From Patescibacteria group bacterium (lineage in GTDB: Bacteria > Patescibacteriota > Minisyncoccia > UBA6257 > HR35), in NCBI GenBank assembly GCA_036741875.1, contig DAINRM010000003.1:6683-70682 (forward strand): a stretch of DNA of 64,000 nucleotides. Reading direction: 5' to 3'. Every line of letters begins with the position of its first letter. Within the stretch, counting starts at the first letter, position 1. The notes under the pieces are model-generated. The model saw only the letters and a program-made list of their open reading frames with translations. It had not been told where the DNA came from and did not search any database. The translations under genes were made by a program, and so were the position numbers. Below, piece by piece: positions 13,431 through 64,000 of this stretch.

Positions 13431-13432
13431 TT

Positions 13433-17441: not shown

Positions 17442-18445
17442 GAAGTTAATCTTTTATAAATATCAATTTTTTCTAAGACCTTACCTGTTCCTCTAGCTAC
17501 AGCAAAAAGAGGATTTTCAGCAATAAAAGTTTTAATAGAAGTTTGTGAAGAAATAAGTTCGTCAATTTTTCTTAAAAGAGCTCCACCACCAGAAAGAACA
17601 ATACCTTTTTCCATAATGTCAGCCACAAGTTCTGGTGGTGTATTGGCTAAAACTCTCTTAATGCCACTGATAATTTCTTTAAGTTCCTTTTGAAGAGCTT
17701 CAGCTACATGAGAAGAAGTTATCTCCACACTTTTAGGAAGTCCGGTTAGATAATCAATGCCATTAACAATCATTTTAAGATCTTCTTGATTTTTATGATT
17801 TTTAAAAGGTAAAGCACTGCCTATTTGGATTTTAATCTGTTCTGCAGTTCTTTCTCCTATAGCTAAATTAAATTTTCTTTTAAGATACTCTCTAATAGCT
17901 TCATCCATTTTATCGCCAGCAATTTTAAGAGATTCAAAAGTCACAATACCACCTAAAGAAATAACAGCTATTTCTGTAGTTCCTCCTCCGATATTGACAA
18001 TCATATTTCCTGAAGGTGTTTGAATAGGCATTTCTGCACCAAGAGCAGCTAAAAGGGGTTCTTTGATAGGATAAACTTCACGAGCACCAGCTTCAAGACC
18101 TGCATCAATGATAGCTTTCTTTTCTGTAGAACTAATACCTGCAGGTACAGAAACAACTAAAGTTGGTTTAAAAAATTTAGTGATTTTGATTTTATTTAAG
18201 AAATATTTTAAAATAGCTAAAGTAGCTTGGTAATCAGCAATAACACCCTCTTTAAGTGGTCTATAAATCTTAATTTCTCTGGGGGTTTTACCGATCATCT
18301 CTTTAGCTTCTCTACCAACAGCAATAATTTTTCTAGATTTTTCATCATAAGCAACAACCGTGGGTTCGCTAATTATCACTCCTTTTTCTGGAAGATAAAC
18401 GTTAGAATTGGCTGTACCCAGGTCAATACCTATTTTAAGAAACAT
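17438..18445 (-). CDS. mreB: Rod shape-determining protein MreB
   Basis: MFLKIGIDLGTANSNVYLPEKGVIISEPTVVAYDEK...NIGGGTTEIAVISLGG...LSGGGALLRKIDELI is canonical MreB. Confidence 0.9.
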   Translation of the reverse strand: MFLKIGIDLGTANSNVYLPEKGVIISEPTVVAYDEKSRKIIAVGREAKEMIGKTPREIKIYRPLKEGVIADYQATLAILKYFLNKIKITKFFKPTLVVSVPAGISSTEKKAIIDAGLEAGAREVYPIKEPLLAALGAEMPIQTPSGNMIVNIGGGTTEIAVISLGGIVTFESLKIAGDKMDEAIREYLKRKFNLAIGERTAEQIKIQIGSALPFKNHKNQEDLKMIVNGIDYLTGLPKSVEITSSHVAEALQKELKEIISGIKRVLANTPPELVADIMEKGIVLSGGGALLRKIDELISSQTSIKTFIAENPLFAVARGTGKVLEKIDIYKRLTS

Positions 18446-36337: not shown

Positions 36338-39300
36338 TTACTCTAGAAATAACATATTTTCTCCGTAAATTTTAAAGAAATAATCCTTATCCTCACATTT
36401 TATAAAGAAATAAACATTTTCTGGCTCTATTATCTCAAACTCATAAATTTTTTGAGGCTCTAAGAAGTAGTTTTCATATTCATCTCGGTAAAATTCATAA
36501 TAGGCAAAATTATATTCGTTTTTGCAAATTTTATCTCCTGTTTCTTTGTATTTTAAATTTAAAATCTTTTCTCCTTCTTCACTTTTAACTTTTATCTTTA
36601 AATCATTAAAACCTTGACCATCATCTCTTTTTTCTATAATTCTCAAATTGATAAGTTGATAACCCTTAGAATTATTTTCAAATGAAATTTTTTTTACTTC
36701 TCCGTTTTCATCTTCAAAAAACTTTATTTCTTTTAAGGGAATTTCGGGGTTATTATTGTATCCTGAAAATTTATAAGATAAAGTCGTTGAGGAGATTTCT
36801 GTTTCTTCTGACTTATAAAGAGAAAGATTAATTACATAATCCAGATTCAAAAAAAGATCACTAGGGCTTAAATCAATTTTAAATGAATTAAAGGTTAACG
36901 GTTTAAATCTTATTTCATCTAGATAAGAATTATTTAAAACATAAAAAAGAGATGTGGTTTCATAATAAGCTGGAGAAAGCCAACTCAAAACAAGTTCAAA
37001 TTGATGATAGGGTTTTTCTTTTGTTTCTTTAATACTATTATCAAAGGAAATTAAGGTATAAGTAGTAGAATCTTTTTTAAGTTCTAAATTGGGTTTATTA
37101 ATAGTTTTAAAAACTTTTTTTACGATCTGAGAATTGTAGGGAACTCCATCAGAAAAAACAAAAGTCTCTCTTATTAAATAGTTATAATCGTCATCAAAAG
37201 CTATATAGCCATTTCCAAGATTTTCTAACTCTTCTTGATTTAAAACTTCTTCATGGCTAATTTTTTTTCTTTCTATCACTTTATTTTCAGGTGGATTTTC
37301 TAAGCAATTAAAATTTTCTACATCACCCCAACATAAATAATCAATTAATTTATCATTATTATCAAAAAGTGCTAAACCATTATCATAAGTTAAACCATAA
37401 ACTGATGATGTAGGATAGATATAATCTGCAGAAATATTAAGGGTATTACATGTTTCCTTATTCACGATTAAAAAATAAGAAAATGGTTGAATAACAGCTT
37501 TAATTTTAGTAGGAGCCACTAGATTTAAATTGCTATAATTTCCATTCCTGGTTATCTTTTTAAGATACCAACCCGAAAGATCTATAGGAAATTCGTTGGG
37601 GTTGTAAAATTCAATAAATTCTCCTTGATTATTATCAACTCCCTTAACTATTTTGACTTTAGAAATAAGTATTTTTCCCTCATTTCTAGCATTTTCAAAG
37701 TTATCTTGTGAATGATCTATTACATGACATTCCGCTATTTGATCTTGAAAACATAAGTTTTTAGGAAATAAAACTTCAGTAGATGTTGAAGCTTGATTTT
37801 CATCATCAATAAGATCTTTAATAAAAACAAAAAACTTTATTGAAGAAGGCAAGCAATTTTCAAAGGGGATTTTAATTAAATAATCTTTAGTAGAAGAGCT
37901 TAAAGAAAAAGTGGAAGTTAGATAATTAAACAAAGAAAGATCGCTTAGGTCTGAAGAGGTTGAAACTTTAATTTCAAAATAATAATTTGATGAAAAATCT
38001 TGATCAGCGTTTAAGGAAAAATTAATTTCCAAGAATTTACCCTCTGATGAAGTTGAAATATTAACATCAAAATTTTGAAAAGTTATTTCACTTAAATCAA
38101 CAAAGTCATTTCGAGGAAGATCGGTAAAGAATGAATTTTTAGGAGAAGGTTGATGAAGCCATAAATCTTTTGAGTTATTATCAGTATCTTGAAAGTTTTT
38201 TCTTTGAATTGATTTATTATCAAAAGATTGAGCTATAAAGGGCGAATTTTCATATTGATAAATTTTTTCAATATTATCTCCATAACCAATTAAATCTGAA
38301 ATTTCTCCATTTGGTTTTCTTAAGATAATAACGTTATTATTAGCGATTGAATAACTTTCTGCATAAGATAAATCTCCTTGATATTTTTCTTTTGTTGATG
38401 AAGAAGTAATAAGGAAATAACTATAAGGTTTTATTTTGCCTTTAAATTTTGAAGAAGGAATAAGAGTTGTTAATTTTGGAGTTGAGTTTGGGTTTTGCCT
38501 TGAGGCATATTTTTCTAAACTCCAGCAAGTTAAATCTATTTCTTCGTTATTAGGGTTATAAAGCTCTATAAATTCATCTTTAGTCTCATCATCAGTTTCA
38601 AATTGAATTTCATTGATAATTATTTTGGGATAGTTTTTATTCTTGTAATCATCACAAAAGTCTTTTTTGCTACTTAAATTTGAAAAACTTCGGCCTCCAC
38701 CATAACTTAAAGTAATAGGCTTATTATTATTATTTTCTTGATTTATATTATTTTGAGAAAGTTCTTTATCAGATGTCTTTTGGGTTGAAGTAGATAAAAT
38801 TTTTGTAGAAGTTGTTAAAATTTTTGAAATTTCATTTAAGACATTTGCTATATTTGAATTTGAATTATCTTGACTTTCTTTGTTTTTACGTTGATTTTTG
38901 GGTTTTTTATAAACCTCGTAAGAATAAAATGTAATGTCTCGATTTGAAGTAATTAAATTTTGATTTAAATCTCGGTTTTGATTTTGATTTTCTAAAGAAG
39001 TTAGCTTTTTGTTTTCTGAAGTTAGGGCTTTATTCGTTTTAACTTCAGTAATGTTTTTGGAAGTAATAATAGCCGGAGTAGAATTAAAATATTTAACTGA
39101 CATAGTCTTAATTGACATTTCTAAAAATCTTTTTTTCATTTCAAGTTCAGCTAATTTCCTTTCTTTTTGTAAAGCAACTTTATCTTTAATACATTCCTTC
39201 TTTTTCTTAATAGGCCAATCATTATCAGTACATTCAGTATAATTTGTTCTAATTTTTGAAAGAGAGCAAGAAAAATCGGTGGAAGGACAATTATAAACAA

Positions 39301-39922
39301 AAATTGTGTCATCTAAAATTTGATCCCATTCTTCACGTTTACTTTGATAATCTTTAAAATATTCTAAATTAGGATTATATCTTCTAATTGCTTTTTCTTC
39401 ATCTTCGTTAATTCCATCATACTTTAATTTTATTGCTGCTGCATAAAGAGAATCTTCTAAATTCCAGGGATTTTTATTTTGAAGTTCTTTATATTGAAGC
39501 CAAGTTGTAGGTTGAAACTGAGTATAGCCAATCCCAAAATCAGGAGAAAATGGAACTTTATTAATATCTAAGCCTAAATTAGAAGTAATTTTTTCTAAAG
39601 TAGAATACTGTTGATGACACCATTGAGTTCGAGCTTCGATGGAATAACAATTTGTACCATTTATAGGTGGTATTAAACTTTTTAAATATTCGCAATACTT
39701 AACACAAGCAGTAATATTTTTATCTTTCGAACCTAAATTTCTACCTAAATCTTTTCCAAATCCACTTTCTTTTTCAATTATTGTCAAAATATAACTTGGT
39801 GTTTTTAATCCCACAATTTTGTATGCCTTATCTATTGCTTCAATAACTCTTTTCCATTCTAAAGCAAAAACTAAACCAATAAATAAAAACAAAAGCAAAA
39901 TAATTGCTTTTGTTTTATTCAT
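36338..39922 (-). CDS. Large (1194 aa) secreted/cell-surface protein: N-terminal MltB-like lytic transglycosylase domain, low-complexity N/S/T-rich linker, and two lamin-tail domains (LTD)
   Basis: Signal peptide MNKTKAIILLLFLFIGLVFA. LT-like block IIEKESGFGKDLG...GIGYTQFQPTTW (compare MltB ES...GAMGQxQFMPSTW). LTD1 KIIINEIQFETDDETKDEFIELYNPNNEEIDLTCWSL. LTD2 KILISKVKIVKGVDNNQGEFIEFYNPNEFPIDLSGWYL. Confidence 0.6.
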   Translation of the reverse strand: MNKTKAIILLLFLFIGLVFALEWKRVIEAIDKAYKIVGLKTPSYILTIIEKESGFGKDLGRNLGSKDKNITACVKYCEYLKSLIPPINGTNCYSIEARTQWCHQQYSTLEKITSNLGLDINKVPFSPDFGIGYTQFQPTTWLQYKELQNKNPWNLEDSLYAAAIKLKYDGINEDEEKAIRRYNPNLEYFKDYQSKREEWDQILDDTIFVYNCPSTDFSCSLSKIRTNYTECTDNDWPIKKKKECIKDKVALQKERKLAELEMKKRFLEMSIKTMSVKYFNSTPAIITSKNITEVKTNKALTSENKKLTSLENQNQNRDLNQNLITSNRDITFYSYEVYKKPKNQRKNKESQDNSNSNIANVLNEISKILTTSTKILSTSTQKTSDKELSQNNINQENNNNKPITLSYGGGRSFSNLSSKKDFCDDYKNKNYPKIIINEIQFETDDETKDEFIELYNPNNEEIDLTCWSLEKYASRQNPNSTPKLTTLIPSSKFKGKIKPYSYFLITSSSTKEKYQGDLSYAESYSIANNNVIILRKPNGEISDLIGYGDNIEKIYQYENSPFIAQSFDNKSIQRKNFQDTDNNSKDLWLHQPSPKNSFFTDLPRNDFVDLSEITFQNFDVNISTSSEGKFLEINFSLNADQDFSSNYYFEIKVSTSSDLSDLSLFNYLTSTFSLSSSTKDYLIKIPFENCLPSSIKFFVFIKDLIDDENQASTSTEVLFPKNLCFQDQIAECHVIDHSQDNFENARNEGKILISKVKIVKGVDNNQGEFIEFYNPNEFPIDLSGWYLKKITRNGNYSNLNLVAPTKIKAVIQPFSYFLIVNKETCNTLNISADYIYPTSSVYGLTYDNGLALFDNNDKLIDYLCWGDVENFNCLENPPENKVIERKKISHEEVLNQEELENLGNGYIAFDDDYNYLIRETFVFSDGVPYNSQIVKKVFKTINKPNLELKKDSTTYTLISFDNSIKETKEKPYHQFELVLSWLSPAYYETTSLFYVLNNSYLDEIRFKPLTFNSFKIDLSPSDLFLNLDYVINLSLYKSEETEISSTTLSYKFSGYNNNPEIPLKEIKFFEDENGEVKKISFENNSKGYQLINLRIIEKRDDGQGFNDLKIKVKSEEGEKILNLKYKETGDKICKNEYNFAYYEFYRDEYENYFLEPQKIYEFEIIEPENVYFFIKCEDKDYFFKIYGENMLFLE

Positions 39923-40613
39923 TTTTTTCTATAAATTTAAAGGTTTTAATGAAATCTTCTAATTTTTCGAGAGTATATCCGGGAATTCCGCCGGTTATTT
40001 CAATTGTTATAACTTTATTATCAAAAAAATACGTATAATTTATAGCTTCTGTAGATAAACCATAAACTTCGCTTTCGATGGATTCTGTATATTTATAAAA
40101 TTCAAGACCGCTATTAGTTAAAAATTTATCTGCATTTTTTACCGCTTGCTTCTTGTTTTCTACAAACTTAGGATCATCAAAAATATAAATACTATAGACA
40201 TGCCACCAAGATCTTGGCATGCCTATTTCATATCTTCCAGGATCATCAAAATAAAGAACTCTTGTATCTCTTGTTTGGTTCAATATTAACTCCTTTGGCA
40301 CTTCTATCTGATAACCTTCGGCATGATTAATAACTAATTTTCTGTCTCCCAGAGGAATGATTTCTACTCCTTCAAGCTGAATGTCTGTTGAAGTAGAAAT
40401 AAAATTTTCAAAACTCAAAATATTAGTTATTTTTTCTGTGTATTTTTCTTCGTCAAATTTTTGAATTCTTTCTATGTCTTTGTTTACTTTTTCAAGCTCT
40501 TTTTGAGTTTCTATTAGTTTTTGTCTTGGAAGATAAACTTGGAAATAATAGAAAGAAGATAAAAAAATTAAAACAAAGATAAAGAATAAAATTAGAAAAA
40601 TTTTCCCTTTCAT
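39915..40613 (-). CDS. Hypothetical membrane-anchored protein (232 aa) with a coiled-coil region and an extracytoplasmic domain
   Basis: N-terminal TM (ILFFIFVLIFLSSFYYF). Overlaps the start of the 1194-aa gene by 8 nt, so the two are likely co-transcribed. Confidence 0.4.
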   Translation of the reverse strand: MKGKIFLILFFIFVLIFLSSFYYFQVYLPRQKLIETQKELEKVNKDIERIQKFDEEKYTEKITNILSFENFISTSTDIQLEGVEIIPLGDRKLVINHAEGYQIEVPKELILNQTRDTRVLYFDDPGRYEIGMPRSWWHVYSIYIFDDPKFVENKKQAVKNADKFLTNSGLEFYKYTESIESEVYGLSTEAINYTYFFDNKVITIEITGGIPGYTLEKLEDFIKTFKFIEKNE

Positions 40614-42389: not shown

Positions 42390-42602
42390 ATGAAAAAGAA
42401 AATTCATCCTCAATATATTCTAACAAAAGTAAGGTGTGCTTGTGGCGCTGAATATGAAGTTTACGGAACAAAAAAAGAAATTTTTGTAGAAGCTTGCAAA
42501 AGTTGTTCTCCTCTTTTTACTGGTAAAGAAGAAACAAAAGTTATTATTGGTAGAGTTGAAAAATTTGTTAAAAAATATTCTAAAAAGAAAAAAGAGGAGT
42601 AA
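42390..42602 (+). CDS. rpmE: 50S ribosomal protein L31
   Basis: MKKKIHPQYILTKVRCACGAEYEVYGTKK...CKSCSP is an L31 Cys motif. Confidence 0.85.
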   Translation: MKKKIHPQYILTKVRCACGAEYEVYGTKKEIFVEACKSCSPLFTGKEETKVIIGRVEKFVKKYSKKKKEE

Positions 42603-42637: not shown

Positions 42638-43372
42638 ATGGAAAACAAAGAAATTCAGAGTATTTATTTTGAAATTAGAGCTGGTGTAGGTGGCGAAGAG
42701 GCTTCTCTTTTTGCTCGTGATCTTTGGAGAATGTATAGTAAGTTTTTTGATAGAAGGGGTTGGAAATATAGAATCTTAGATATCTCTGAAAGCGATTTAG
42801 GTGGCATAAAAACTTTAGTAGCGGAGGTTACTGGTGAACGTGTTTATGATCTTTTAAAACAAGAAGCTGGTGTTCATCGAGTTCAAAGAATTCCTATCAC
42901 AGAAAAAAGTGGAAGAATTCATACCTCTACTGCTTCAGTGGCTATTTTACCAAAACTTTCTTTACCTCAAATTCAAATAAAAGAATCTGATATAGAAATA
43001 GAATTTTTTAGATCTGGTGGACCTGGAGGACAAAATGTAAATAAGGTAGAAACTGCTGTAAGAATAAGACATAAACCCACAGGAATTGTTGTTTCTTGTC
43101 AAGTAGAAAGAAGTCAGCAAAGAAATAGAGAAATTGCTATGGAAATGTTAAAAAACAAAATATGGCAAATGGAACAAGAAAAAATTTTAGGAAACTTAAC
43201 AGAAGAAAGAAGAAAACAAATAGGTTCGCAAGAAAGATCTGAAAAAATTAGAACTTACAACTTTCCTCAAAATAGAGTGACTGACCACAGAATAAATAAA
43301 AGCTGGTATGATTTAGACGAAATTATGGAAGGAAAATTAGATAAAATAATTGAAGCTTTCCAAAAAAAGTAA
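42638..43372 (+). CDS. prfA: Class I peptide chain release factor, RF1-like (PxT = PIT, GGQ present), lacking the N-terminal domain 1
   Basis: 244 aa. Aligns to E. coli RF1 from about residue 107 onward: [22 protein letters not shown]; [20 protein letters not shown]; [28 protein letters not shown]; [13 protein letters not shown]. Only 35 nt separate it from rpmE upstream. Confidence 0.75.
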
Positions 43373-45429: not shown

Positions 45430-46392
45430 ATGAAAAAGATTTTACCTATAATTTTTTTTAGCTCATCAAGATTTGGTATTTACGTTTTAAAGGAGTTTTT
45501 AAAATTTTATAAGATTCTTTTAATTTTTACCCTACCAGCTAAAAGTAAGGGAAGAGGACTTAAGGTTTCCCCTAATGAAGTTTATCTTTTTGCTTTAAAA
45601 GAAAAAATACCTGTTTTAGAAATAAAAAATTGGGATGAAGTTAAAAAGGAGCTTAATTTAATAAAACCTTTAGCTGGAGTAATTGCCGGGTTTGGAAAAA
45701 TTATACCTAAAGAAATTATAGAGATTTTTCCATTGGGCATTTTAAATGTTCACCCTTCTCTTCTTCCAAAATATAGAGGCCCAAATCCTATAAGAGAAAC
45801 AATTTTAAATGGTGATCAAGAAACAGGGGTAACTATTTTTTTAATTGACGAACTTGTAGATCATGGACCTATAGTTGCTCAAGAAGGTATATTTCTCAAA
45901 GGAAAAGAAAATTATCTTGAACTTGAAGAAAATTTAGGAAAATTGGGTGGTTTTAAGCTTAGAGAAATTATTGAACCATTTTTAGAAAAGAAAATAGAGT
46001 TAATACCTCAAGATGAAACTAAAGCAACTTATACAAGAAAAATAAAATTTGAAGATGGGTATTTAGATTTTAAAGATCCTTATGAAATTTGGTATAGAAA
46101 AATAAGAGCTTTAAATCCTGAGCCAGGAACTTATATTTACATTTGGCATAAAGGAATAAAGAAAATACTGAAAATTTTTTCCATAGAGAAAATTGATGAA
46201 AAAAATTTAGATGAAAAAACAAAAGAAATAAACTTAGGAGATTTTTTTAGATATAAAAATGAATTAGGTCTTAAAATTAATGGAAGTTATATAGTTATAC
46301 ACGAACTTCAGCTTCAAGACAGAAAAAAAATGAGTTCAAAGGAATTTTTAAATGGTTACCCCTTAGAAAGCTTTAGTTTAGTTAAAAATTAA
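45430..46392 (+). CDS. fmt: Methionyl-tRNA formyltransferase
   Basis: ILNVHPSLLPKYRGPNPIRETILNGDQETGVTIF is the formyltransferase core. def-fmt operon. Confidence 0.9.
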   Translation: MKKILPIIFFSSSRFGIYVLKEFLKFYKILLIFTLPAKSKGRGLKVSPNEVYLFALKEKIPVLEIKNWDEVKKELNLIKPLAGVIAGFGKIIPKEIIEIFPLGILNVHPSLLPKYRGPNPIRETILNGDQETGVTIFLIDELVDHGPIVAQEGIFLKGKENYLELEENLGKLGGFKLREIIEPFLEKKIELIPQDETKATYTRKIKFEDGYLDFKDPYEIWYRKIRALNPEPGTYIYIWHKGIKKILKIFSIEKIDEKNLDEKTKEINLGDFFRYKNELGLKINGSYIVIHELQLQDRKKMSSKEFLNGYPLESFSLVKN

Positions 46393-46955
46393 TAAAGATT
46401 TTTATTTGGACCAACCTCATAAAGCGTATTTTGATTACCTCCATCGTTTATCATAGCACTAGTATCTCCTTCAAGTCTTGCGTTTAATTCATATTCCCCA
46501 ACATCACTTGTGCAAACAAAAGCGTAAAGATAACCAACTCCTCCAATGGTTCTATTTATAGGATCTAAAGGAAGAGATGATAAATTAACTAAAGTAGAAG
46601 AAGCTAAATTAACATATCTTACCCAGCCGGTTCCATTAATAGCGGTACTAGTTGTTCCTGTAGCCGTATAACCTGCAGGAATTGCCGGCCAACCAGATGG
46701 ATTGCTGGTTCTAGTTTCTGAAAAAGAAATAGTGTTTCCTGGACACCAACTTAGAGAAACAGAAGGATTTTGCATTGCATCAGCTAAATATATATCTATA
46801 GCTCTTTGAACATTATTTAAATCTCCTTTTCTTTGAGTATCTCTAGCTCTTATAAATATCTCTTGTGGTCTAATAACGACAATAAGAACCCCCGCTAAAA
46901 TAGAAATTAAAGCTAAGACTATTAAAAGTTCCATTAAAGTAAAACCTTTTTTCAT
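46389..46955 (-). CDS. Type IV pilin-like protein with a prepilin signal
   Basis: MKKGFTLMELLIVLALISILAGVLIVVI is a class III signal peptide (G/FTLxE). Confidence 0.65.
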   Translation of the reverse strand: MKKGFTLMELLIVLALISILAGVLIVVIRPQEIFIRARDTQRKGDLNNVQRAIDIYLADAMQNPSVSLSWCPGNTISFSETRTSNPSGWPAIPAGYTATGTTSTAINGTGWVRYVNLASSTLVNLSSLPLDPINRTIGGVGYLYAFVCTSDVGEYELNARLEGDTSAMINDGGNQNTLYEVGPNKNLY

Positions 46956-48259: not shown

Positions 48260-49660
48260 ATGAAAAAAATTGAAGACATAAAACCTAAAAGCTTAGCTTT
48301 TTTTAATTTTAAAAGAAAAAATAATTATTTTTATTTTTTAAATGCTAAAGATTTAAAAATCATTTTTTTAATCTTACTTTTTATAGGAATTAATTTTGCC
48401 TTTGCTCCGCTTTCATTCACCCAAATAACACAAAAAACTCTTCCTCCTGAACTTGAAGCTAAAAAGAAATCATTAGAAGCCCAGCTTCAAGAAGTTTTAA
48501 AAGAAATAGAAAATTACAAAAAAGAAATAAACAAAATAAGAAGTCAAAAAAGAAGCATACAGCAAGAAATAAACTTAGTCAATTCACAGATAAAAAAAAC
48601 AGAACTTGAAATTCAAGCAATTAATTTACAGATAAAAAATTTAAATAAAAAAATAGAAGAAACAAAAAAATCAATTAACCTTACTGAAGAAAAAATTAAA
48701 AAATCTAAAGATTATCTTTTAGTTTCATTAAGATATTACTATCAATTAAGACAAAGAAGCATTATTGAAGTATTTTTAGCCGAAGCAAGACTTTCGGATT
48801 ATTTTAGTCAATTTTATTATCTCCAAAAAGTTCAAGAAAGTATTAACAACGAATTAGACAAATTAAAAGAACTTAATGAGATTTTGAATAAACAAAAAAC
48901 TAAATTAGAAAATCAACTTGAAGAGCAAAATAATCTTTTAATGCTTTCAAAAATAAAATACCAGGAGCTTCAAGAGTTAAAAAATGAAAAAAATAAACTT
49001 TTGGCTCAGGCACAAAAACTTGAAAGAGAATATAGCAAAAAATTAGAAGAGTCAGAAAGAACTGCAACACAGATAAGACAAGAAATTTATAAATTAGCAG
49101 GAGGAGCTGGACCAATTACTTTTGGTGAGGCTTATGAATATGCAAAAATCGTAGAAAAATATACTGGCGTAAGGCCAGCTTTTCTTTTAGCTGTTTTACA
49201 TTATGAGTCAAAATTAGGACAAAATGTAGGAACTTGTCATTATAAAGAAGCCATGAAACCATCGGAAAGACCTATTTTTGAAGAGATAGTTAAAGAACTG
49301 GGTTTAGATCCTAATAAAATGCCTGTTTCTTGTAAACCTTGGTATGGTTGGGGTGGTGCTATGGGTCCTGCTCAATTTATACCCTCAACATGGATGAAAT
49401 ATAAAGAACGAATTGCTAGAATTACCGGAAATAATCCGCCTTCTCCTTGGAATATTTTAGATTCTTTTGTAGCTGCTGGACTTTATCTTAAAGATGCTGG
49501 AGCAGACGCAAGAAATTACTCTTCAGAATGGAAAGCAGCTATGATATATTTTGCTGGCTCTAATTGGAACAATCCTTCTTTAAGATTTTATGGAGATGAT
49601 GTAATGTCAATTGCTCAAAGATTTGAAGAAGATATCAGAATTTTGGAAAGAAGTAAGTAA
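48260..49660 (+). CDS. Secreted coiled-coil protein with a C-terminal MltB-like lytic transglycosylase domain
   Basis: N-terminal TM/signal, then a long heptad-rich region (about residues 60-270). C-terminal AFLLAVLHYESKLGQNVG...GWGGAMGPAQFIPSTW (compare MltB ES...GAMGQTQFMPSTW). Confidence 0.6.
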   Translation: MKKIEDIKPKSLAFFNFKRKNNYFYFLNAKDLKIIFLILLFIGINFAFAPLSFTQITQKTLPPELEAKKKSLEAQLQEVLKEIENYKKEINKIRSQKRSIQQEINLVNSQIKKTELEIQAINLQIKNLNKKIEETKKSINLTEEKIKKSKDYLLVSLRYYYQLRQRSIIEVFLAEARLSDYFSQFYYLQKVQESINNELDKLKELNEILNKQKTKLENQLEEQNNLLMLSKIKYQELQELKNEKNKLLAQAQKLEREYSKKLEESERTATQIRQEIYKLAGGAGPITFGEAYEYAKIVEKYTGVRPAFLLAVLHYESKLGQNVGTCHYKEAMKPSERPIFEEIVKELGLDPNKMPVSCKPWYGWGGAMGPAQFIPSTWMKYKERIARITGNNPPSPWNILDSFVAAGLYLKDAGADARNYSSEWKAAMIYFAGSNWNNPSLRFYGDDVMSIAQRFEEDIRILERSK

Positions 49661-57262: not shown

Positions 57263-57410
57263 GGAAATTTTTAAAAATTTTTTTCAAAACAAAAAAGTTC
57301 AGCTTTTTATTTTTATAATTCTTATCTCTTTTTTGAGTTTTGGGATGGGATTTATGGTAGGAAGCAAATTTTATGAACCTAATCCTATTATAATTGAAAA
57401 AAATGAATAA
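57261..57410 (+). CDS. Possible small membrane protein (49 aa), absent from the ORF track
   Basis: ATG 57261 through TAA 57408-57410 gives MEIFKNFFQNKKVQLFIFIILISFLSFGMGFMVGSKFYEPNPIIIEKNE. Lies in an otherwise gene-free 260-nt gap. Confidence 0.2.
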   Translation: MEIFKNFFQNKKVQLFIFIILISFLSFGMGFMVGSKFYEPNPIIIEKNE

Positions 57411-57522
57411 GCCTTCGGAGTTTTTAGATTTTCTCGGTAAGTTAATTTTTGCTTTTTTTATTATTATTTTTGTCTTTTATTACAAATTTAAAAATAGAAT
57501 CAGAAAGTTTTTAAAGCTTTAG

Positions 57523-57608
57523 CGGAGGGGGTGGGACTCGAACCCACAAGGCCACTAAGGGCCACCGGTTTTCAAGACCGGCGCATTAGCCAATTCTGCC
57601 ACCCCTCC
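57523..57608 (-). tRNA. tRNA-Ser (anticodon TGA), long variable arm
   Basis: Reverse complement gives GGAGGGG TG GCAG AATTGGCTAA TGC G CCGGT CTTGAAA ACCGG TGGCCCTTAGTGGCCTT GTGGG TTCGAGT CCCAC CCCCTCC G. Confidence 0.8.
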
Positions 57609-57610
57609 AT

Positions 57611-57683
57611 TGCCCCCAACCGGATTCGAACCGGTATTTCCAGCCTGAGAAGCTGGTGTCCTGACCTGTTAGACGATGGGGGC
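57611..57683 (-). tRNA. tRNA-Glu (anticodon CTC)
   Basis: Reverse complement gives GCCCCCA TC GTCT AACAGGTCA GGAC A CCAGC TTCTCAG GCTGG AAAT ACCGG TTCGAAT CCGGT TGGGGGC A. Confidence 0.75.
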
Positions 57684-57687
57684 AATT

Positions 57688-57771
57688 TGGGCAGGGAGGG
57701 ATTCGAACCCTCACGGCCTTTCGGCCACAAGGTCCTAAGCCTTGTGCGTCTTCCAGTTCCGCCACCTGCCC
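57688..57771 (-). tRNA. tRNA-Leu (anticodon TAG), long variable arm
   Basis: Reverse complement gives GGGCAGG ... CAAGG CTTAGGA CCTTG TGGCCGAAAGGCCGT GAGGG TTCGAAT CCCTC CCTGCCC A. Confidence 0.8.
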
Positions 57772-57786
57772 TGTTATTTTATTATA

Positions 57787-58023
57787 TCACTCAAAGAACC
57801 TTCTTATCAAACTAGGTATAGTTAAAGAAAGAAAAATTACAATTATTCCTATAATTAAAGGCACTATTCTTGAATGAAATTCTTCTGCTCCCTTTTTACC
57901 TCCCAAAATGTATCTTAAACCAAAATAAAGAAGTAGAAAAACAAGTAAAAATAAAATAAAAGTAAAAAATAATTTAAAAAAATTAGTAAAAACTTTTAAA
58001 ACTTCTGGATGAATAAGTTCCAT
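57787..58023 (-). CDS. Small two-TM membrane protein (78 aa), shortest member of the paralogous array
   Basis: TM, loop GGKKGAEEFHSRIVPLIIG, TM. The loop is homologous to the loops of the downstream paralogs. Confidence 0.4.
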   Translation of the reverse strand: MELIHPEVLKVFTNFFKLFFTFILFLLVFLLLYFGLRYILGGKKGAEEFHSRIVPLIIGIIVIFLSLTIPSLIRRFFE

Positions 58024-58024
58024 T

Positions 58025-58678
58025 TTATCTTAAACTGAAGAAAAAATTTTCAACAAGTTTCACTACTGTAAAAGAAGAAAAGGAAATTAAAATCCCTATA
58101 GCAATATAAATAAAGTTTTTATGGATTTCAGAAGATTTCTCTGGTTTAGCTATATAATTAAAACCTGTCCAAATAAGCATAATAACTGTTGCCAAAAAGG
58201 CAGCTTTATAAAAAAGGCTTAGGAATAAATAAATAAGATAAAAAAAACATAATGACCAGGCATTTTGAGAAAGAGTAGAAGTCTCAAAAACTGAAGGAAT
58301 CTCGATACCACCACATTTTATACTTTCAGGAGGATTGTATTCTGGCAACCCTTCGGCAAAAACAAAATTAAAAATATTGAAAGAAATTAAACGAGAAATA
58401 AGTAGAACTAGAGCATAAGAAAGAAGAGCTAAGACAAGTCCTACTGCTCCCCATAAAATTCTTTTATGAATTTCGCTTGATTTTTCAGGTTTAGACATAT
58501 AAAGAAAACCAGCCCAAAAAATCATTAAAGTAGAAAAGGCAATAGCTAAGGTACTTGTGATAATTAAAACTTGATTAAAAATATAAAAGAAGCAATCCAG
58601 AAAATTTCTATTTTCACATAAAATAGGAGGCAATTCTGGAAAGGTGTTTGTTGATATTTGAGCTAAAATTTCAAACAT
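58025..58678 (-). CDS. Membrane protein (217 aa) containing two tandem copies of the Cys-pair + TM-loop-TM module
   Basis: Internal repeat: CENRNFLDCFFYI...FWAGFLYMSKPEKSSEIHKRILWGAVGLVLALL and CGGIEIP...SLCFFYL...IWTGFNYIAKPEKSSEIHKNFIYIAIGILISF. Confidence 0.5.
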   Translation of the reverse strand: MFEILAQISTNTFPELPPILCENRNFLDCFFYIFNQVLIITSTLAIAFSTLMIFWAGFLYMSKPEKSSEIHKRILWGAVGLVLALLSYALVLLISRLISFNIFNFVFAEGLPEYNPPESIKCGGIEIPSVFETSTLSQNAWSLCFFYLIYLFLSLFYKAAFLATVIMLIWTGFNYIAKPEKSSEIHKNFIYIAIGILISFSSFTVVKLVENFFFSLR

Positions 58679-58696
58679 TCATCAATTTTATTAAGT

Positions 58697-59065
58697 TTAT
58701 TGAGTTTGAAATCCTAAAAGTCTTCCTATTAGCCAAGCTATTGCAAAAGAAAGAAGTGCTACTATAATACCGACAATAGCAAAAAGAATTTTACTTCTAG
58801 CCTTACCAACTTCTTCTGCTTTTTCTCCAGAAGTCATAAATGCCCAAGCGGCTCTAAAGATTTCGAAAGCACCCCACGCTAAGGCTATAAAACCCAGTAA
58901 ATAAAAAACGCTTCTAACAACACAAATTATTCTTTGAATTATATCTCCATATTGAGTGATACAGTTAGAAATAATAGGAATTTCCTCTATAGGACCTTGA
59001 GCATAAGTTGGAACAATATGAAAAATAGTTAAAAATAAGGTTAGAATTATAATTAATTTTCTCAT
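58697..59065 (-). CDS. Small secreted two-TM membrane protein (122 aa), paralog family member
   Basis: Signal peptide MRKLIIILTLFLTIFHIVPTYAQG. Cys pair CITQYGDIIQRIIC. TM, loop FMTSGEKAEEVGKARSKILFAIVG, TM. Confidence 0.5.
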   Translation of the reverse strand: MRKLIIILTLFLTIFHIVPTYAQGPIEEIPIISNCITQYGDIIQRIICVVRSVFYLLGFIALAWGAFEIFRAAWAFMTSGEKAEEVGKARSKILFAIVGIIVALLSFAIAWLIGRLLGFQTQ

Positions 59066-59137
59066 TTTTTAATCTACAAAAATTTCGACCCTTTTTAAAT
59101 TTTAAAATAAATTTTAAAATAAAAAAACAAAAATTTG

Positions 59138-59533
59138 TTAAAAACTCGGACCTCCAAAAATAAATCTAATTAATGTAAAAACTCCGGAAATAATAAGCAA
59201 AACAATATAACCAACAACAGCATTTTTAATATATCTCCAACCGATATCCCTTGCTTCTGGTTTAAAAGTAATTAGCAAAAACCAAAACCCTCCAATAATA
59301 ATTAAGGCAGTCAGTGAAAAAGGAGCTAAATATAGAATAAAATTCCAAACTCTTTGTATAAATTCCATTAAAGAAACAAATTCACAAGGTTCTTTACCAA
59401 ATATACCTGGAGGACAAGGATTTATTGTTACTTCTGTCCAGGTAACAACAACTTCTCCTGGTTTTTTCATTTCTATCTGAGCCAAACTTAAACTGAAGAT
59501 TAAAAATAAAGTTAAAAATAAAAATTTTCTCAT
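59138..59533 (-). CDS. Small secreted two-TM membrane protein (131 aa), paralog family member
   Basis: Signal peptide MRKFLFLTLFLIFSLSLA. Cys pair NPCPPGIFGKEPCEF. TM, loop TFKPEARDIGWRYIKNAVVG, TM. Confidence 0.5.
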   Translation of the reverse strand: MRKFLFLTLFLIFSLSLAQIEMKKPGEVVVTWTEVTINPCPPGIFGKEPCEFVSLMEFIQRVWNFILYLAPFSLTALIIIGGFWFLLITFKPEARDIGWRYIKNAVVGYIVLLIISGVFTLIRFIFGGPSF

Positions 59534-59922
59534 GGTCCGAAAATTATTCTTTCTATTTGATCTTTAATAAGATCTCCTAAGAGAACAATAACAATACCTA
59601 CCGGAGTCCAAGTAAGTATTTTCCAGGCTGTTGCTATATTTTTTAGACCAAAAAATGGTGTTGTTATAAGATAAATAGCTGCTCCAAAAAAAGCGATTAC
59701 CATTAAAATTAAGGCAAAACTTTTAAGAAGTTCTAAAATATCAAAAATACATTTAAAAATTTGTTCTGTCGCTGATTTAGCTCCACTTCCACATCTTAAG
59801 CTAGAATAAATAGGTTCTCTAAAAAAATTCAGAATCGAATAAAATGGATCTTGGTTTTCTTCACTTGAAAAAACGAAGTTTATCACAAAGATTATCAAAA
59901 ATAAAAAAATTATTTTTTTCAT
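59530..59922 (-). CDS. Small secreted two-TM membrane protein (130 aa), paralog family member
   Basis: Signal peptide MKKIIFLFLIIFVINFVFS. Cys pair RCGSGAKSATEQIFKC. TM, loop PFFGLKNIATAWKILTWTPVG, TM. Confidence 0.5.
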   Translation of the reverse strand: MKKIIFLFLIIFVINFVFSSEENQDPFYSILNFFREPIYSSLRCGSGAKSATEQIFKCIFDILELLKSFALILMVIAFFGAAIYLITTPFFGLKNIATAWKILTWTPVGIVIVLLGDLIKDQIERIIFGP

Positions 59923-59928
59923 TATGCT

Positions 59929-60288
59929 TTAATATTTTAATTTAGGACCAAAAAATTCCAAAACAAAATCAAAAATAACACCAATACTCAAAAGTAAAAT
60001 ATAACCTACAATAGCTGTTTTAATCATATCCTTACCTCTTTTTTCTAAATCAGGTCTCGGACCTCCGAACATCCATAAAAAGGAGCCTATAACGGAAACC
60101 AAAACAGAAAACCAAAAACCAATAAAAACAGCAAAAGAAAGAAGTCTTCTAATATTTATAAAAATTTCTTCAACAGTGCAAGGGTCATTTTGACAATAAA
60201 TAATTCCTCTAGAAAAATCTTCATTTTGGAGAAAGGCTAAATTAGGTAAAGTAAGAAAAAAAAGAATAAATAAAATAATTTTTCTCAT
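59929..60288 (-). CDS. Small secreted two-TM membrane protein (119 aa), paralog family member
   Basis: Signal peptide MRKIILFILFFLTLPNLAF. Cys pair YCQNDPC. TM, loop FGGPRPDLEKRGKDMIKTAIVGY, TM. Confidence 0.5.
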   Translation of the reverse strand: MRKIILFILFFLTLPNLAFLQNEDFSRGIIYCQNDPCTVEEIFINIRRLLSFAVFIGFWFSVLVSVIGSFLWMFGGPRPDLEKRGKDMIKTAIVGYILLLSIGVIFDFVLEFFGPKLKY

Positions 60289-61473
60289 TTAAAATTTTAA
60301 ATTCAATAAAAACAAGGCTCTTCGTCCTTCTTCTTTATTATTTTCCCAAATATTCAAAATATTTTCAAAATCATCATAATTTTCATGAGAAATAAACCCT
60401 AAGTATGAAGAACCAAAAATGGCTCCTTTAATAAAAGCTTCTTTTTTCTCAGACAAATTTTGAAAAGAAAAGTTGGGTACGAGATCAAATTTTTCTATAA
60501 ATTCTTCATAATTTTTTCCACTAAAAAGCCAATTAAAAAAATAAAGAGAGATTTCTTTTTTTTGTGAAGCTTTGGGCAAAACAAAATAAAAAACTTTTAC
60601 AAAATTTTTAGATGAGGGTGGAAATGTTTCTATAGGGTTTTGATAAATCTCATATTCTATTCTAGGATTTAATTTAAGAATTTTTTTAAGATCTTCATAA
60701 AAAACAAAAGCTGAAGCTGATTTTATTGAAGAAAAAAGACTTATTTCGTCTTTACCTAGATTTCTTGCTAAAGCAAAATAGGGAGAGTTTTCATCGCTAT
60801 AACTAAAATAGGTATCAATAGCTTCTTGGAGAGAAGATTTTTTTAGAGACTTTAAAACTAAAATAATTTCTTTTTTATTTTTGATTTCTTTTGTTCCTAA
60901 GGAGACGAGATAAAAATCTCTATAACCTCTATTTTTAAAATCCTCTAGAAGCTCGTTTAATTCTTCTAACGTTTTAGGAGGATCATAATTTAAAAACTGA
61001 AAAACTTTTTTGTTATAAACAAAAAGAAGTGAATCAATATTCACGGGAAGACCAAATAAATCGATTTCTTCTTGAAAAAATTTTTTAGGCAAATTTAATT
61101 TTTTGTTCCATCCTTCCTCTAAATATTTTCTATTTCTAAAAACAAAATAGTTAGGTGCGTAAATAATATCAGGTGGGTTATTTTCGGCTAAAGAATAAAT
61201 AAATTTTTTTTCTAAATCATCGAATTTTATTTCTTCATAATCTATCCTTAAACAATATTTAGCGGCAAAAGGAGAAATAAAATTTAAAAAATCATTCCTA
61301 TCAAAAGAAGCCCAAATTATTAAATTAGTGTTAAAACAAGTTTTTGGTTTTCCTTCTTTAGATGGTTTCAAAAAAATATAGCCTATAAAAAGGATAACAA
61401 TAGTAAGTAAAATAAGTTGTATTCTAACATCTGTCAAAATTTTATTTTTTATTTCTTCTAAACTAAATCTCAT
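60289..61473 (-). CDS. Membrane-anchored extracellular solute-binding protein-like (SBP family 1 / sugar-binding type), orphan
   Basis: N-terminal TM. LIIWASFDRNDFLNFISPFAAKY, DIIYAPNYFVF and GLPVNIDSLLFVYNKKVF...PPKTLEELNELL match conserved SBP_bac_1 blocks. No permease or ATPase genes are adjacent. Confidence 0.55.
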   Translation of the reverse strand: MRFSLEEIKNKILTDVRIQLILLTIVILFIGYIFLKPSKEGKPKTCFNTNLIIWASFDRNDFLNFISPFAAKYCLRIDYEEIKFDDLEKKFIYSLAENNPPDIIYAPNYFVFRNRKYLEEGWNKKLNLPKKFFQEEIDLFGLPVNIDSLLFVYNKKVFQFLNYDPPKTLEELNELLEDFKNRGYRDFYLVSLGTKEIKNKKEIILVLKSLKKSSLQEAIDTYFSYSDENSPYFALARNLGKDEISLFSSIKSASAFVFYEDLKKILKLNPRIEYEIYQNPIETFPPSSKNFVKVFYFVLPKASQKKEISLYFFNWLFSGKNYEEFIEKFDLVPNFSFQNLSEKKEAFIKGAIFGSSYLGFISHENYDDFENILNIWENNKEEGRRALFLLNLKF

Positions 61474-61991
61474 TTTTGAAAAACTAAAAGATAAAAACCA
61501 GGGTATTCCTTTCTTTCTAATATTTTAAAGCCTATTTCATTACAAATTTTTTCAACTTCTTCTTGAGAATGGACTTTTTGACCAGAAAATAAAAAGTTTG
61601 AACTTTGAGGTTCATAAATTATTAAAAAACTATTATTTTTTATAACCCTAAAAGCTTCTTTAATTATTTTTTGTGGTTCTTTTGATTGATATAAAACTTG
61701 AGAAATAAAGACAAAATCAACTTGATTATTAGCTAAACCCGAATTTTTTTCTAAATCTTGTTTTAAAAATCTTATATTCTTCACTCCTAAGTTGTTGGCA
61801 AATTCTTGTGCTGATTTTAACTCATCTTCTAGAACATCTATAGCATAAATTGTTCCTGATGGTAAAACACTTTGCGCTAAAAGAATTGAAAAATAACCGC
61901 TTCCACATCCAAAATCGGCACCATTCATATTAGCAGCTATATACTTTTTCTCCTTTAAATACTTAACAATTTCTCCTGGTTTAGTAAACAT
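61470..61991 (-). CDS. Class I SAM-dependent methyltransferase (173 aa)
   Basis: GADFGCGSGYFSILLAQ (motif I GxGxG) and FDFVFISQVLY (motif II/III region). Confidence 0.7.
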   Translation of the reverse strand: MFTKPGEIVKYLKEKKYIAANMNGADFGCGSGYFSILLAQSVLPSGTIYAIDVLEDELKSAQEFANNLGVKNIRFLKQDLEKNSGLANNQVDFVFISQVLYQSKEPQKIIKEAFRVIKNNSFLIIYEPQSSNFLFSGQKVHSQEEVEKICNEIGFKILERKEYPGFYLLVFQK

Positions 61992-64000
61992 TAAAAAATA
62001 AAAACAGAGTTAATTTCATTTACTCCTTGAATTTTTTTGGGAGCATTAATTCTTTTAACTAAAGGAATTTCTTTAAGATTTATTTTCTTTATTGCCCCAT
62101 CATTTAAAATAACTTCTTTTTCTTCTTTTACTACTTTAGCAAAAATAAGAGAGCCATACTTATCTTTTTCAAAAATAAAAAGACCCTTACCTCCTCTTTG
62201 TTGAGTTTTTATATCTTTTATCTCAAAAAATTTAACAAACCCCTTACTGAAAAACAAAATAAGCCTTTCTCCATCTTTAACACCGCTAAAAAGAGCTTCA
62301 CCTTTTACTCCTTTTACTCCTTTAGCCTGTTTTTTTTGAATTGGTAAATTATCTTTAAAAATTAGAATAGAACCTTCTGAAGTAATAACAAAAATTTCCT
62401 CACCTCCTTTAATTTCAAAAGCAGAAATAACTTCATCATTAGCTTTAAGTTTTATTCCTACAATGCCACTTTTTCTGTTTGAAAAAACTTCTTCTTTTTC
62501 TATTTTCTTAACTAAGCCCTTTTTAGTAAACAAAATTAAATTTTTAAATCTTGAAGGAAAGATAGAAACTATTTTATCGCCGCTATCTAAAGTTATAAAA
62601 GATTCTAAATATTTTTGATCTTTTTTATAAAGTTCATAAGCATTGAGGAAATAAATTTTTCCTTTTGATGTTGCTATTAAAAGATAATCTTTTGTATTTA
62701 AAAGAAAAACTTTTTTAGGAAAAATTTTATTTTTAATAAGTTTATCAAGATCTAATTTTGTTTCCTCAAAAGTAAAAATTTGATTTTTATCAGAAATTAA
62801 AAGTAAAAAGGTTTTTTCTTCAATAATTTTTTTCTCTTCCTTAATTTCTTCATAAACAATTTTTGTTATTCTTTCTGATTTATATTTATTTATAATTTCA
62901 TCAGCTTCTTTAATGATAATTTCGTCGATTTTTTTAGGATTTTTTAAAATAAGCTCTAATTCTTGAATAAGACTTCTTCTTTCTTTAAGTTCTTCTAAAA
63001 TTTTATGTCTTTCCATTTGCGTTAAAGTTCGAAGCGGCATTTCTAAAATAGCATCAGCTTGCTTTTCTGAAAGCTTAAATTTCTTCATTAAATTTTCTAA
63101 GGCTTCTTTTTTGTCTTTTGATTTTTTAATAGTTTCAATAACTCTATCTAGGTTTTCTAAAGCTTTATCAAAACCTTCTAAAAGATGAACTCTTTCTTTA
63201 TTTTTTTCTAAATCAAATTTTGTTCTCCTTTTAATAACTTCTCTTCGATGGTTTATCCACGTAAGGAGAAGTTCTTTTAAATTAAATGTTTTAGGTTGAA
63301 TTCCGTTTTCTAAAGCAATAAAATTAAAATAAAAAGTTTTTTGAAGAGAAGTAAGTCTATAGAGATCTTTTTTCACTTTATCTCTATCAGCATCTGGTTT
63401 AATTTCAATAACAATTCTAATACCTTCTTTATTTGATTCATCTCTTACATCTTTAATTTCGGGAACTATTTTTTCTAAAGTAAGATTAGCTATCTCTTTA
63501 ACCAGCTCTGCCTTGCTTGTTTGCCAAGGAATTGATTTAATAACCAAAAATTCTTTACCTCTTTTGGTTTCTTCAACTTCTATTTCTCCTCTAATAATAA
63601 TACCTCCTTTTCCTTCGCTATAAGCTTTTTCAAGTTTTTCTCCTGCATAGACAATACCTCCTGTAGGAAAGTCTGGTCCTTTAATTATTTTTAAGAGCTC
63701 TTTAACAGTTATTTTTTCATTTTTAATAATTTCTTTAGCTGCTTGCATAACTTCAGTTAAATTATGAGGAGGAATATTTGTTGCCATACCAACAGCAATT
63801 CCCATTGAACCATTAATCATCAAATTAGGTATCTTTGATGGCAAAACCACCGGTTCTTCTCTAGTATTATCATAATTAGGTCTAAAATCAACAGTTTCTT
63901 TATCAATATCAGCAAGCATTTCAACAGCAAACTGAGAAAGTTTAGTTTCTGTGTATCTATAAGCAGCTGGAGGATCTCCATCTATAGAACCAAAATTTCC
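61991..64000 (-). CDS. gyrA: DNA gyrase subunit A. The C-terminal two-thirds lie in the window; the N-terminus runs off the window end (partial).
   Basis: Frame stays open to position 64000 (upstream translation ...GNFGSIDGDPPAAYRYTETKLSQFAVEMLADIDKETVDF...). NGSMGIAVGMATNIPPHNL. The GyrA box QQRGGKG in the CTD distinguishes GyrA from ParC. Confidence 0.9.
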   Translation of the reverse strand, partial: GNFGSIDGDPPAAYRYTETKLSQFAVEMLADIDKETVDFRPNYDNTREEPVVLPSKIPNLMINGSMGIAVGMATNIPPHNLTEVMQAAKEIIKNEKITVKELLKIIKGPDFPTGGIVYAGEKLEKAYSEGKGGIIIRGEIEVEETKRGKEFLVIKSIPWQTSKAELVKEIANLTLEKIVPEIKDVRDESNKEGIRIVIEIKPDADRDKVKKDLYRLTSLQKTFYFNFIALENGIQPKTFNLKELLLTWINHRREVIKRRTKFDLEKNKERVHLLEGFDKALENLDRVIETIKKSKDKKEALENLMKKFKLSEKQADAILEMPLRTLTQMERHKILEELKERRSLIQELELILKNPKKIDEIIIKEADEIINKYKSERITKIVYEEIKEEKKIIEEKTFLLLISDKNQIFTFEETKLDLDKLIKNKIFPKKVFLLNTKDYLLIATSKGKIYFLNAYELYKKDQKYLESFITLDSGDKIVSIFPSRFKNLILFTKKGLVKKIEKEEVFSNRKSGIVGIKLKANDEVISAFEIKGGEEIFVITSEGSILIFKDNLPIQKKQAKGVKGVKGEALFSGVKDGERLILFFSKGFVKFFEIKDIKTQQRGGKGLFIFEKDKYGSLIFAKVVKEEKEVILNDGAIKKINLKEIPLVKRINAPKKIQGVNEINSVFIF

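Follow-up and report, generated by a model that had tools for sequence, protein, structure and literature searches.

The window analysed here is a 64,000-nucleotide stretch of a Patescibacteria group genome (GenBank assembly GCA_036741875.1, contig DAINRM010000003.1, positions 6,683 to 70,682 of the forward strand), which forms part of a 76,157-bp metagenomic contig. It contains a tandem array of six small membrane protein genes that, on sequence evidence, are paralogous VirB2/TrbC-like type IV secretion system (T4SS) pilins of the Patescibacteria branch represented by Pfam family PF18895. An initial annotation had noted a resemblance to VirB2/TrbC-type pilins, recognised no established family and proposed a candidate novel system. 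The resemblance is borne out by family profiles, and the other two statements are superseded, as PF18895 is matched and tandem arrays of two to eleven such genes have already been described (PMC12102498, PMC10633639, PMC12857230). The locus is a further example of this published kind of Patescibacteria array rather than a new system. Its detachment from T4SS genes, its solute-binding protein (SBP) neighbour, its fixed set of seven modules and its gene fusions with conserved junction motifs are features specific to the lineage.

Gene organization of the array

The array consists of six co-oriented open reading frames (ORFs) on the minus strand (57787-60288), encoding proteins of 78 to 217 aa that together carry seven copies of one two-helix hairpin module; all six ORFs lie where the initial annotation had placed them. 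Pilin paralogue F (59929..60288; 119 aa) comprises a signal peptide, the Cys pair YCQNDPC and a two-helix hairpin. Paralogue E (59530..59922; 130 aa) likewise combines a signal peptide, a Cys pair and a hairpin and is the most divergent member. Paralogue D (59138..59533; 131 aa) has a signal peptide, a hairpin and a conserved ectodomain, KPGEVVVTWT...CPPGIFGKEPC, and paralogue C (58697..59065; 122 aa) a signal peptide, a Cys pair and a hairpin with the canonical loop TSGEKAEEVGKARSKILFAIVGIIVALLS. The double-module pilin B (58025..58678; 217 aa) contains modules at approximately aa 1-108 (B1) and 109-217 (B2), each with a Cys pair, and has no N-terminal signal peptide. Paralogue A (57787..58023; 78 aa) is the minimal member, a bare hairpin with neither signal peptide nor Cys. 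Packing is tight: D overlaps E by 4 nt, the other gaps between packed genes measure 0, 1, 6 and 18 nt, and a 72-nt spacer between D and C is the sole sizeable intergenic gap of the array.

Module architecture and paralogy

Hydropathy analysis revealed two transmembrane (TM)-like segments per module, and four in B, in agreement with the hairpin predicted earlier. The AlphaFold2 model of C also forms a hairpin, with helices at residues 42-78 and 83-116 (pLDDT 74). The model of B, obtained from an alignment of five sequences at a pLDDT of 49.5 and used for secondary structure only, contains four long helices. Fold searches were uninformative because helical hairpins are ubiquitous.

A Cys pair is located just before the first helix in six of the seven modules (B1, B2, C, D, E and F), and an N-terminal signal peptide is present only in C, D, E and F, being absent from A, B and the second module of B. 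The initial annotation had assigned a signal peptide and a Cys pair to the module as such; this description holds for C to F, but A and B lack a signal peptide, and A lacks Cys as well. All the Cys motifs and loop strings quoted in that annotation are present.

Module-versus-module BLAST linked B1 with B2 (E=2.8e-15), B1 with C (E=2.9e-12), A with B2 (E=3.8e-8) and D with F (E=4.6e-8). These values show that the paralogy and the internal duplication of B, both proposed previously, are real, and the two PF18895 stretches within B agree with the duplication. E is the weakest member, having no BLAST link to its own paralogues. Pairwise identity among the array proteins ranges from 16 to 31 %.

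Membership of the PF18895 pilin family

The Pfam model PF18895 (T4SS_pilin, 'Type IV secretion system pilin') has a gathering score of 26.6 bits. In a Pfam scan, B (38.6 bits, in two stretches), D (27.4) and F (27.5) scored above it, and precomputed PF18895 labels carried by the array's own proteins in a public protein collection agree. The gathering score of the TrbC/VirB2 model PF04956 (27.9 bits) was reached by none of the six proteins. B came nearest at 25.6 bits, aligning in register with profile positions 50-96 of 98, followed by A at 14.9 bits, with no match for the others. The Mbov_0395 pilin-like family (NF045849) matched B at 32.2 bits and C at 21.7 bits, both under its 40-bit cut-off.

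A profile search of a large protein collection with the seven modules retrieved 49 proteins, among them orthologues of each of B, C, D, E and F (58-89 % identity) and distant PF18895-positive Patescibacteria proteins. C is the member closest to the family consensus. By BLAST it is linked to PF18895-positive proteins of other Patescibacteria at E-values of 1e-7 to 2e-15, and its alignment with canonical members from VirB4/VirB6-linked arrays stays in register over helix 1, the loop SGGD/E..V.KAR..I..AIVGIIVALLA and helix 2. In the family alignment containing C, 19 of the 25 sequences match PF18895, and the orthologue of C in bacterium HR35 passes this profile. The A, B, D, E and F groups have diverged far from the consensus, which C alone resembles. 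When orthologue groups were compared with the family alignment by hhalign, A (95.4 %, E=1.9e-8), D (97.6 %), E (91 %, E=9e-7) and F (97.6 %) all matched in register, results whose weight is limited by the inflation of profile matches between TM proteins through composition. E has, in addition, a BLAST link to the PF18895-positive protein P0030 (E=1.7e-8).

The Cys pair and the high copy number had been considered atypical for such pilins. Both are common among the relatives examined: at least two Cys precede helix 1 in 16 of the 35 other family members examined, and published arrays comprise 2-11 genes. The profile searches that the initial annotation had proposed against pilin, holin and bacteriocin families returned the PF18895 pilin family and no Pfam holin or bacteriocin family. 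Against PHROGs, five of the proteins had no match and F a single one, to a family of unknown function (E=0.006). A holin, bacteriocin or phage origin was rejected on these grounds.

Comparison with known VirB2-like pilins

PF18895 and PF04956 have been used to survey 3,035 Patescibacteria assemblies, of which 2,417 contained VirB4 (PMC12102498, Quinonero-Coronel et al. 2025). VirB2-like pilins were found in 1,948 assemblies and lay near virB4 in only 1,135 of these, indicating that linkage to the T4SS is not obligatory; approximately 40 % of the VirB2-like-carrying assemblies have copies away from virB4 (PMC12102498). The same survey catalogued 441 VirB2 arrays in 383 assemblies, most abundantly in Microgenomatia and Saccharimonadia; these are chromosomal, lack a relaxase and consist of 2-11 genes with a mean identity of ~25 % (PMC12102498). 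The six adjacent genes described here, examined with the same Pfam models, correspond to this definition of a VirB2 array, namely 2-11 genes of low mutual identity on a Patescibacteria chromosome, in tandem or with one non-pilin gene between them. The names HR35 and GCA_002898235 do not occur in the supplementary text of PMC12102498, and the lineage carrying the present array was apparently not catalogued in that survey.

Southlakia epibionticum ML1 (Candidatus Southlakia, Saccharimonadia) likewise carries six tandem, divergent PF18895 genes on a monoderm Patescibacteria chromosome, encoding signal peptides and two-helix hairpins. Its pilins have been described as six VirB2-like, structurally conserved and sequence-divergent proteins (2025 review, PMC12857230), and transposon sequencing (Tn-seq) found the predicted pilin series in its T4SS cluster to be essential (Wang et al. 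2023, PMC10633639). The S. epibionticum array is embedded in a T4SS cluster with VirB6-, VirB3/PrgI- and VirB4-like neighbours, whereas no T4SS gene was found on the 76-kb contig studied here. Two other Saccharimonadia loci (L010 and L012) contain six PF18895 genes beside genes for TrbL_3/VirB6, PrgI, TraC-like and VirB4 proteins, with Cys pairs in several copies, as here. The Saccharimonadia copies all lie near the family consensus, in contrast to C alone in the present array, which also includes one two-module fusion gene. None of the six Saccharimonadia pilins showed 1:1 orthology to a paralogue group of this array; all six best matched the canonical profile, partly because related sequences were included in it. 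Further pilin arrays were found at locus L009 and on one JGI contig. When the N-terminal 357 aa of VirB4 from L012 were used as a query against a collection of 5.8 billion proteins, the 120 matches listed were all of Saccharimonadia type, with 77-86 % identity to the query, and those bearing names were Saccharibacteria/Saccharimonadia.

VirB2 of the Agrobacterium T-pilus, TrbC of RP4 and TraA of F share with the array proteins the design of a small pre-protein with a leader, two hydrophobic helices and a short charged loop. Unlike the present array, these systems are found in diderm bacteria, and a single major pilin gene lies within their T4SS operon. Their pilins are known to undergo cyclisation or acetylation. 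The Mbov_0395-family pilin-like protein of Mycoplasma integrative and conjugative elements (NF045849) is a monoderm hairpin as well, although it is present as a single copy inside a mobile element. The VirB2 arrays of Bartonella and Anaplasma phagocytophilum resemble the present array in tandem amplification and divergence, but have been read as a source of antigenic or host-range variation (PMC12102498), in contrast to the fixed number, fixed order and purifying selection observed here.

Lineage, synteny and selective constraint

Proteins at least 90 % identical to the EF-Tu and the methyltransferase encoded on this DNA come from Ca. Paceibacterota or Pacebacteria, Minisyncoccia and bacterium HR35, and the same array is present in genomes named Ca. 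Paceibacterota, Patescibacteria group bacterium and bacterium HR35. One array carrier, ERB_C1, is assigned to GTDB family HR35, genus HRBIN35, and originates from a geothermal site (PMC11657696). The organism is a member of this geothermal HR35/HRBIN35 lineage, a placement fitted by the G+C content of the DNA (~28 %) and by its compact housekeeping gene content. These relatives also agree with the episymbiont-like organism envisaged initially.

Gene order was compared across two clades, whose SBPs are 34 % identical, with four species-representative genomes among the relatives. The order GyrA-methyltransferase-SBP-F-E-D-C-B-A recurs unchanged in all related loci of sufficient length. Throughout both clades and at least six species-level lineages, the seven modules keep the same number, order and identity, and no gain, loss or shuffling of modules was seen across the compared loci. 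The region downstream of the array varies, consisting of tRNA genes and RodA here, rpoBC in HR35 and MetRS in the second clade. In the other direction, the stretch back to FtsH, including GyrA and the methyltransferase, is syntenic as well. Recurrence of the array in independent assemblies, together with the constraint on its genes, excludes an assembly artefact, a possibility raised in the initial annotation.

Each of the six genes has a 1:1 orthologue elsewhere, with dN/dS ratios of 0.07-0.49 (A, 0.07-0.32; D, 0.08-0.14; F, 0.15-0.38). The Cys pairs are kept, the four Cys of B being invariant among its orthologues. C evolves fastest, with 45 % identity to its HR35 orthologue compared with 63-78 % for the other paralogues. 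Judged by these ratios, purifying selection is shown for each paralogue.

In some relatives, F, D or E bears a long additional N-terminal ectodomain (L036:8998-9561, L015:11838-12482, P0028 and P0029), in which Cys (CxCC motifs) or proline repeats (PSQPSQP) abound, which marks the exposed N-terminal region as the variable part of otherwise fixed subunits. Inteins were observed in FtsH and GyrA. The FtsH gene on the window's own contig contains one (L001:110-2569, ~2-4.6 kb past the right end of the window), HR35 FtsH (L006:1-3803) contains two together with a LAGLIDADG domain, and the sister-clade GyrA (1,218 aa) contains an intein with a LAGLIDADG endonuclease, gyrA of L015 being called as two ORFs (L015:2307-5453; L028:380-4036).

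Module fusions and their junctions

B consists of two modules in all relatives, and in the sister clade F and E are fused into a single ORF of 236-250 aa (L015 and L027-L032). Every junction between fused modules is formed by a short hydrophobic stub that ends in V/A/L-x-A and is followed by Q, E or D. Examples, with a slash marking the junction, are FNFVFA/EG in B of the present array, FNFAYA/QI, KIVLA/QT and, in L027, KIVLA/DT. The junction motif of B is conserved in nine orthologues from both clades. The junction pattern matches the ends of the array's own N-terminal signal peptides and resembles a signal-peptidase site. Helix 2 runs from inside to outside, so that the topology would allow signal peptidase to cleave directly behind it. 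As the junction motifs suggest, the fused genes may encode polyprotein precursors that this enzyme cuts into single pilins.

Fused modules also occur in the wider family. A profile of the PF18895-like family matched 91,538 cluster representatives (50 % identity), and its best-scoring matches (within P0211-P0360) are single polypeptides in which 2-17 fused hairpin modules follow one signal peptide, here termed polypilins; P0215 (1775 aa) and P0211 (552 aa) are examples. A text search of PMC12102498 found nothing stated about module fusion in pilins, about Cys pairs of pilins or about an SBP linked to them.

Neighbouring genes and regulatory sites

Directly upstream of the array, on the same strand, lies a gene for a membrane-anchored, MalE-like SBP homologue (60289..61473; 394 aa), preceded by a gene for a class I SAM-dependent methyltransferase (61470..61991, minus strand; 173 aa; Methyltransf_31, 83.4 bits). 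Both had been recognised in the initial annotation and are supported by family profiles; the SBP homologue scores 39.3 bits against SBP_bac_8 (cut-off 27) and 35.3 bits against SBP_bac_1 (cut-off 26), and its distant PDB matches are maltose- and sugar-binding proteins. The 4-nt and 1-nt overlaps noted earlier are those between the methyltransferase and SBP genes and between the GyrA and methyltransferase genes, respectively. Wherever a related locus extends to the SBP gene, this gene adjoins the array, even where SBP identity is as low as 34 %, and the methyltransferase gene keeps its position in all relatives that include this part. A profile search of genome contigs with the SBP alignment gave no match, although HR35 is in that collection, where it was found with pilin D. 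No gene for an ABC permease or ATPase was found near the SBP gene among the window ORFs scanned.

Co-transcription of the array with the SBP and methyltransferase genes, as proposed initially, is plausible because the genes are tightly packed and their order is invariant in related loci of sufficient length. As synteny extends back to FtsH, this linkage does not point specifically to a joint function, and the housekeeping synteny around it is at least as well conserved as the adjacency of the SBP gene to the array. The methyltransferase is only an unproven candidate for a component of the array system.

The genes for tRNA-Ser, tRNA-Glu and tRNA-Leu (57522-57771) adjoin the array, as previously reported. 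They also lie on the minus strand and are therefore transcriptionally downstream of the array, and not upstream as had been stated. A promoter-like site (57781..57810, minus strand; TTGATA-18-TG-TATAAT, 11 of 12 matches, with a near-consensus extended -10) overlaps the last codons and the stop codon of gene A and ends nine bases upstream of tRNA-Leu. The tRNA genes appear to have their own promoter-like site at 57810..57781, which belongs to the surroundings rather than to the array and appears to mark the downstream boundary of the array's transcription unit. A second site lies in the D-C spacer (59086..59110, minus strand), where a -10-like box (TGnTAtAAT in relatives, TAAAAT here) is followed by an invariant GGTCG in an alignment of eight loci (the window, L002, L006, L015, L018, L025, L029 and L032). 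This spacer, of 72-117 nt, is kept in all relatives, whereas the other genes abut or overlap, and its motif may serve C-B-A as an internal promoter or 5' leader. Promoter-like sites as a whole are no more frequent than expected by chance (18 observed versus 19.3 in shuffled sequence), and hence only the two sites with positional or conservation support are reported. A scan of 57300-62300 found no terminators.

Every window ORF of at least 200 aa was compared with Pfam. Except for two without a family match (1627-2298 and 39915-40613), all encode housekeeping functions, including aminoacyl-tRNA synthetases, PBP2, MreB/C, RodA, MiaA, GyrA, ribosomal proteins and glycogen enzymes. The 12 kb of the contig outside the window encode FtsH, an S1 protein, GroES/EL and similar proteins, and the left 6.7 kb, viewed through a gene of the EPSP-synthase family (418 aa), contain only housekeeping genes. 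Two MreB paralogues (12414-13490 and 17438-18445, both minus strand), together with MreC, PBP2 and RodA, amount to a full rod-shape machinery kept in an ultra-small bacterium. The ORF for a peptide-chain release factor (42638-43372, plus strand; 244 aa) begins at approximately position 98 of the PCRF domain and apparently lacks the N-terminal domain. Upstream of it lies a 70-aa ORF (42390-42602; MKKKIHPQY...) that appears L31-like by eye, and no separate ORF resembling the missing release-factor part was seen there.

Three further window proteins were noted. A 188-aa protein (46389-46955, minus strand) carries the prokaryotic N-terminal methylation motif PF07963 and is a type IV pilin or pseudopilin, distinct in kind from the VirB2-like pilins of the array. 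Weak matches to the SLT_2 lytic-transglycosylase family, at 23.0 and 25.1 bits against a cut-off of 24.3, were obtained for 36338-39922 (minus strand), which encodes 1,194 aa with Lamin-tail domains, and for 48260-49660 (plus strand), which encodes 466 aa with a coiled-coil. These two proteins could be VirB1-like cell-wall openers, and neither is adjacent to a T4SS gene.

Proposed function and alternative explanations

We consider it likely that the array encodes seven VirB2/TrbC-like modules in six genes that serve as the pilins of a T4SS, forming a heteromeric structure with C as its major subunit. In the proposed mechanism, which draws on analogy with VirB2/TraA/TrbC pilins and with the Patescibacteria T4SS, the proteins would be placed in the cytoplasmic membrane so that both termini face outward and the charged loop lies inside, and the Cys pairs would form disulfides outside the cell. 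A VirB4-driven, monoderm-type T4SS, encoded at another place in the genome, would then extract the subunits and assemble them into a pilus or short conduit through which an episymbiont may contact its host cell. C is proposed as the major subunit because of its canonical sequence, the conserved spacer with a promoter-like -10 box before its gene and its fast evolution; the other five proteins would serve as minor or adaptor subunits. The retention of all seven modules as 1:1 orthologues in a fixed order leads us to infer a heteromeric structure with specialised subunits rather than an antigenic-variation cassette.

Several observations weigh against this assignment. Genes for VirB4, VirB6, PrgI/VirB3, TraC-like and coupling proteins were not found on the 76-kb contig (window plus flanks), and searches with HMMs and phmmer up to 10 kb from the array in 22 related loci (L015-L037) detected none for VirB4, VirB6, PrgI or TraC-like proteins. 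Below the PF18895 gathering score lie A (21.8 bits) and E (13.4 bits), C itself gives no match to that profile, and the hhalign results carry the compositional caveat given above. No solved structure was found for any family member, and the topology of A and B, both devoid of a signal peptide, is assumed. For the family as a whole, functional evidence consists of Tn-seq essentiality in one species (PMC10633639), and the papers examined report neither a pilus made of Patescibacteria pilins nor a requirement for these pilins in substrate transfer, a FEMS review referring to the 'potential to elaborate conjugative pili' (PMC12857230).

The main rival explanation is that, in this lineage, the pilin-like hairpins have been recruited into an envelope complex that works without a T4SS and with the anchored MalE-like protein, for instance as an uptake conduit for host glycans that spans the membrane or the cell wall. 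This would account for the separation of the array from T4SS genes on the contig and in relatives, the invariant SBP adjacency, the lack of an ABC permease beside the SBP among the ORFs scanned and the distance of A, B, D, E and F from the family consensus. The FtsH-GyrA-methyltransferase region is syntenic too, however, so the SBP adjacency may simply be inherited gene order. Location away from virB4 is also common among VirB2-like-carrying Patescibacteria assemblies (~40 %, PMC12102498), and no pilin-SBP system was found in the Patescibacteria T4SS literature examined. We regard co-option as unlikely. A farther-reaching proposal holds that the hairpins of the HR35 lineage are no longer ordinary T4SS pilins and would form a fixed, heteromeric seven-module envelope conduit that is co-expressed with the MalE-like protein and takes up host glycans together with it, with B and F-E made as polyproteins cut at retained signal-peptidase motifs and polypilins of up to 17 modules being widespread and undescribed; taken as a whole, it is somewhat less probable still.

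Alternatively, the array could be a rapidly varying surface-antigen or host-range cassette with interchangeable copies, comparable to the VirB2 paralogues of Bartonella and Anaplasma. This reading has been offered for Patescibacteria arrays (PMC12102498), and the faster evolution of C is consistent with it. Interchangeable copies are nevertheless difficult to reconcile with a module number, order and identity that do not vary between the two clades or among at least six species-level lineages, with the lack of any observed gain, loss or shuffling, with dN/dS below 0.5 for every gene and with fusions that join specific neighbours (F-E and B1-B2), making this explanation very unlikely. The notion of small peptides that are secreted or act on membranes (holins, phage remnants, or class II bacteriocins with immunity proteins), to which the small, hydrophobic tandem products with signal peptides and Cys pairs bear a superficial likeness, is already largely refuted and scarcely credible, given the positive PF18895 matches, the lack of any PHROGs family or Pfam holin or bacteriocin match, the failure to find phage, exporter or immunity genes around the array, and its stable chromosomal position with 1:1 orthology across species.

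Implications for Patescibacteria pilins

Few envelope features specific to Patescibacteria have experimental support, and VirB2-like arrays, being essential in S. epibionticum, are among them. The HR35/HRBIN35 lineage shows that such an array can be located far from T4SS genes and beside a binding protein, and its fixed module set under purifying selection favours specialised heteromeric subunits over interchangeable antigenic variants. The conserved junction motifs and the many-module polypeptides of the family provide testable handles on pilin processing and assembly.

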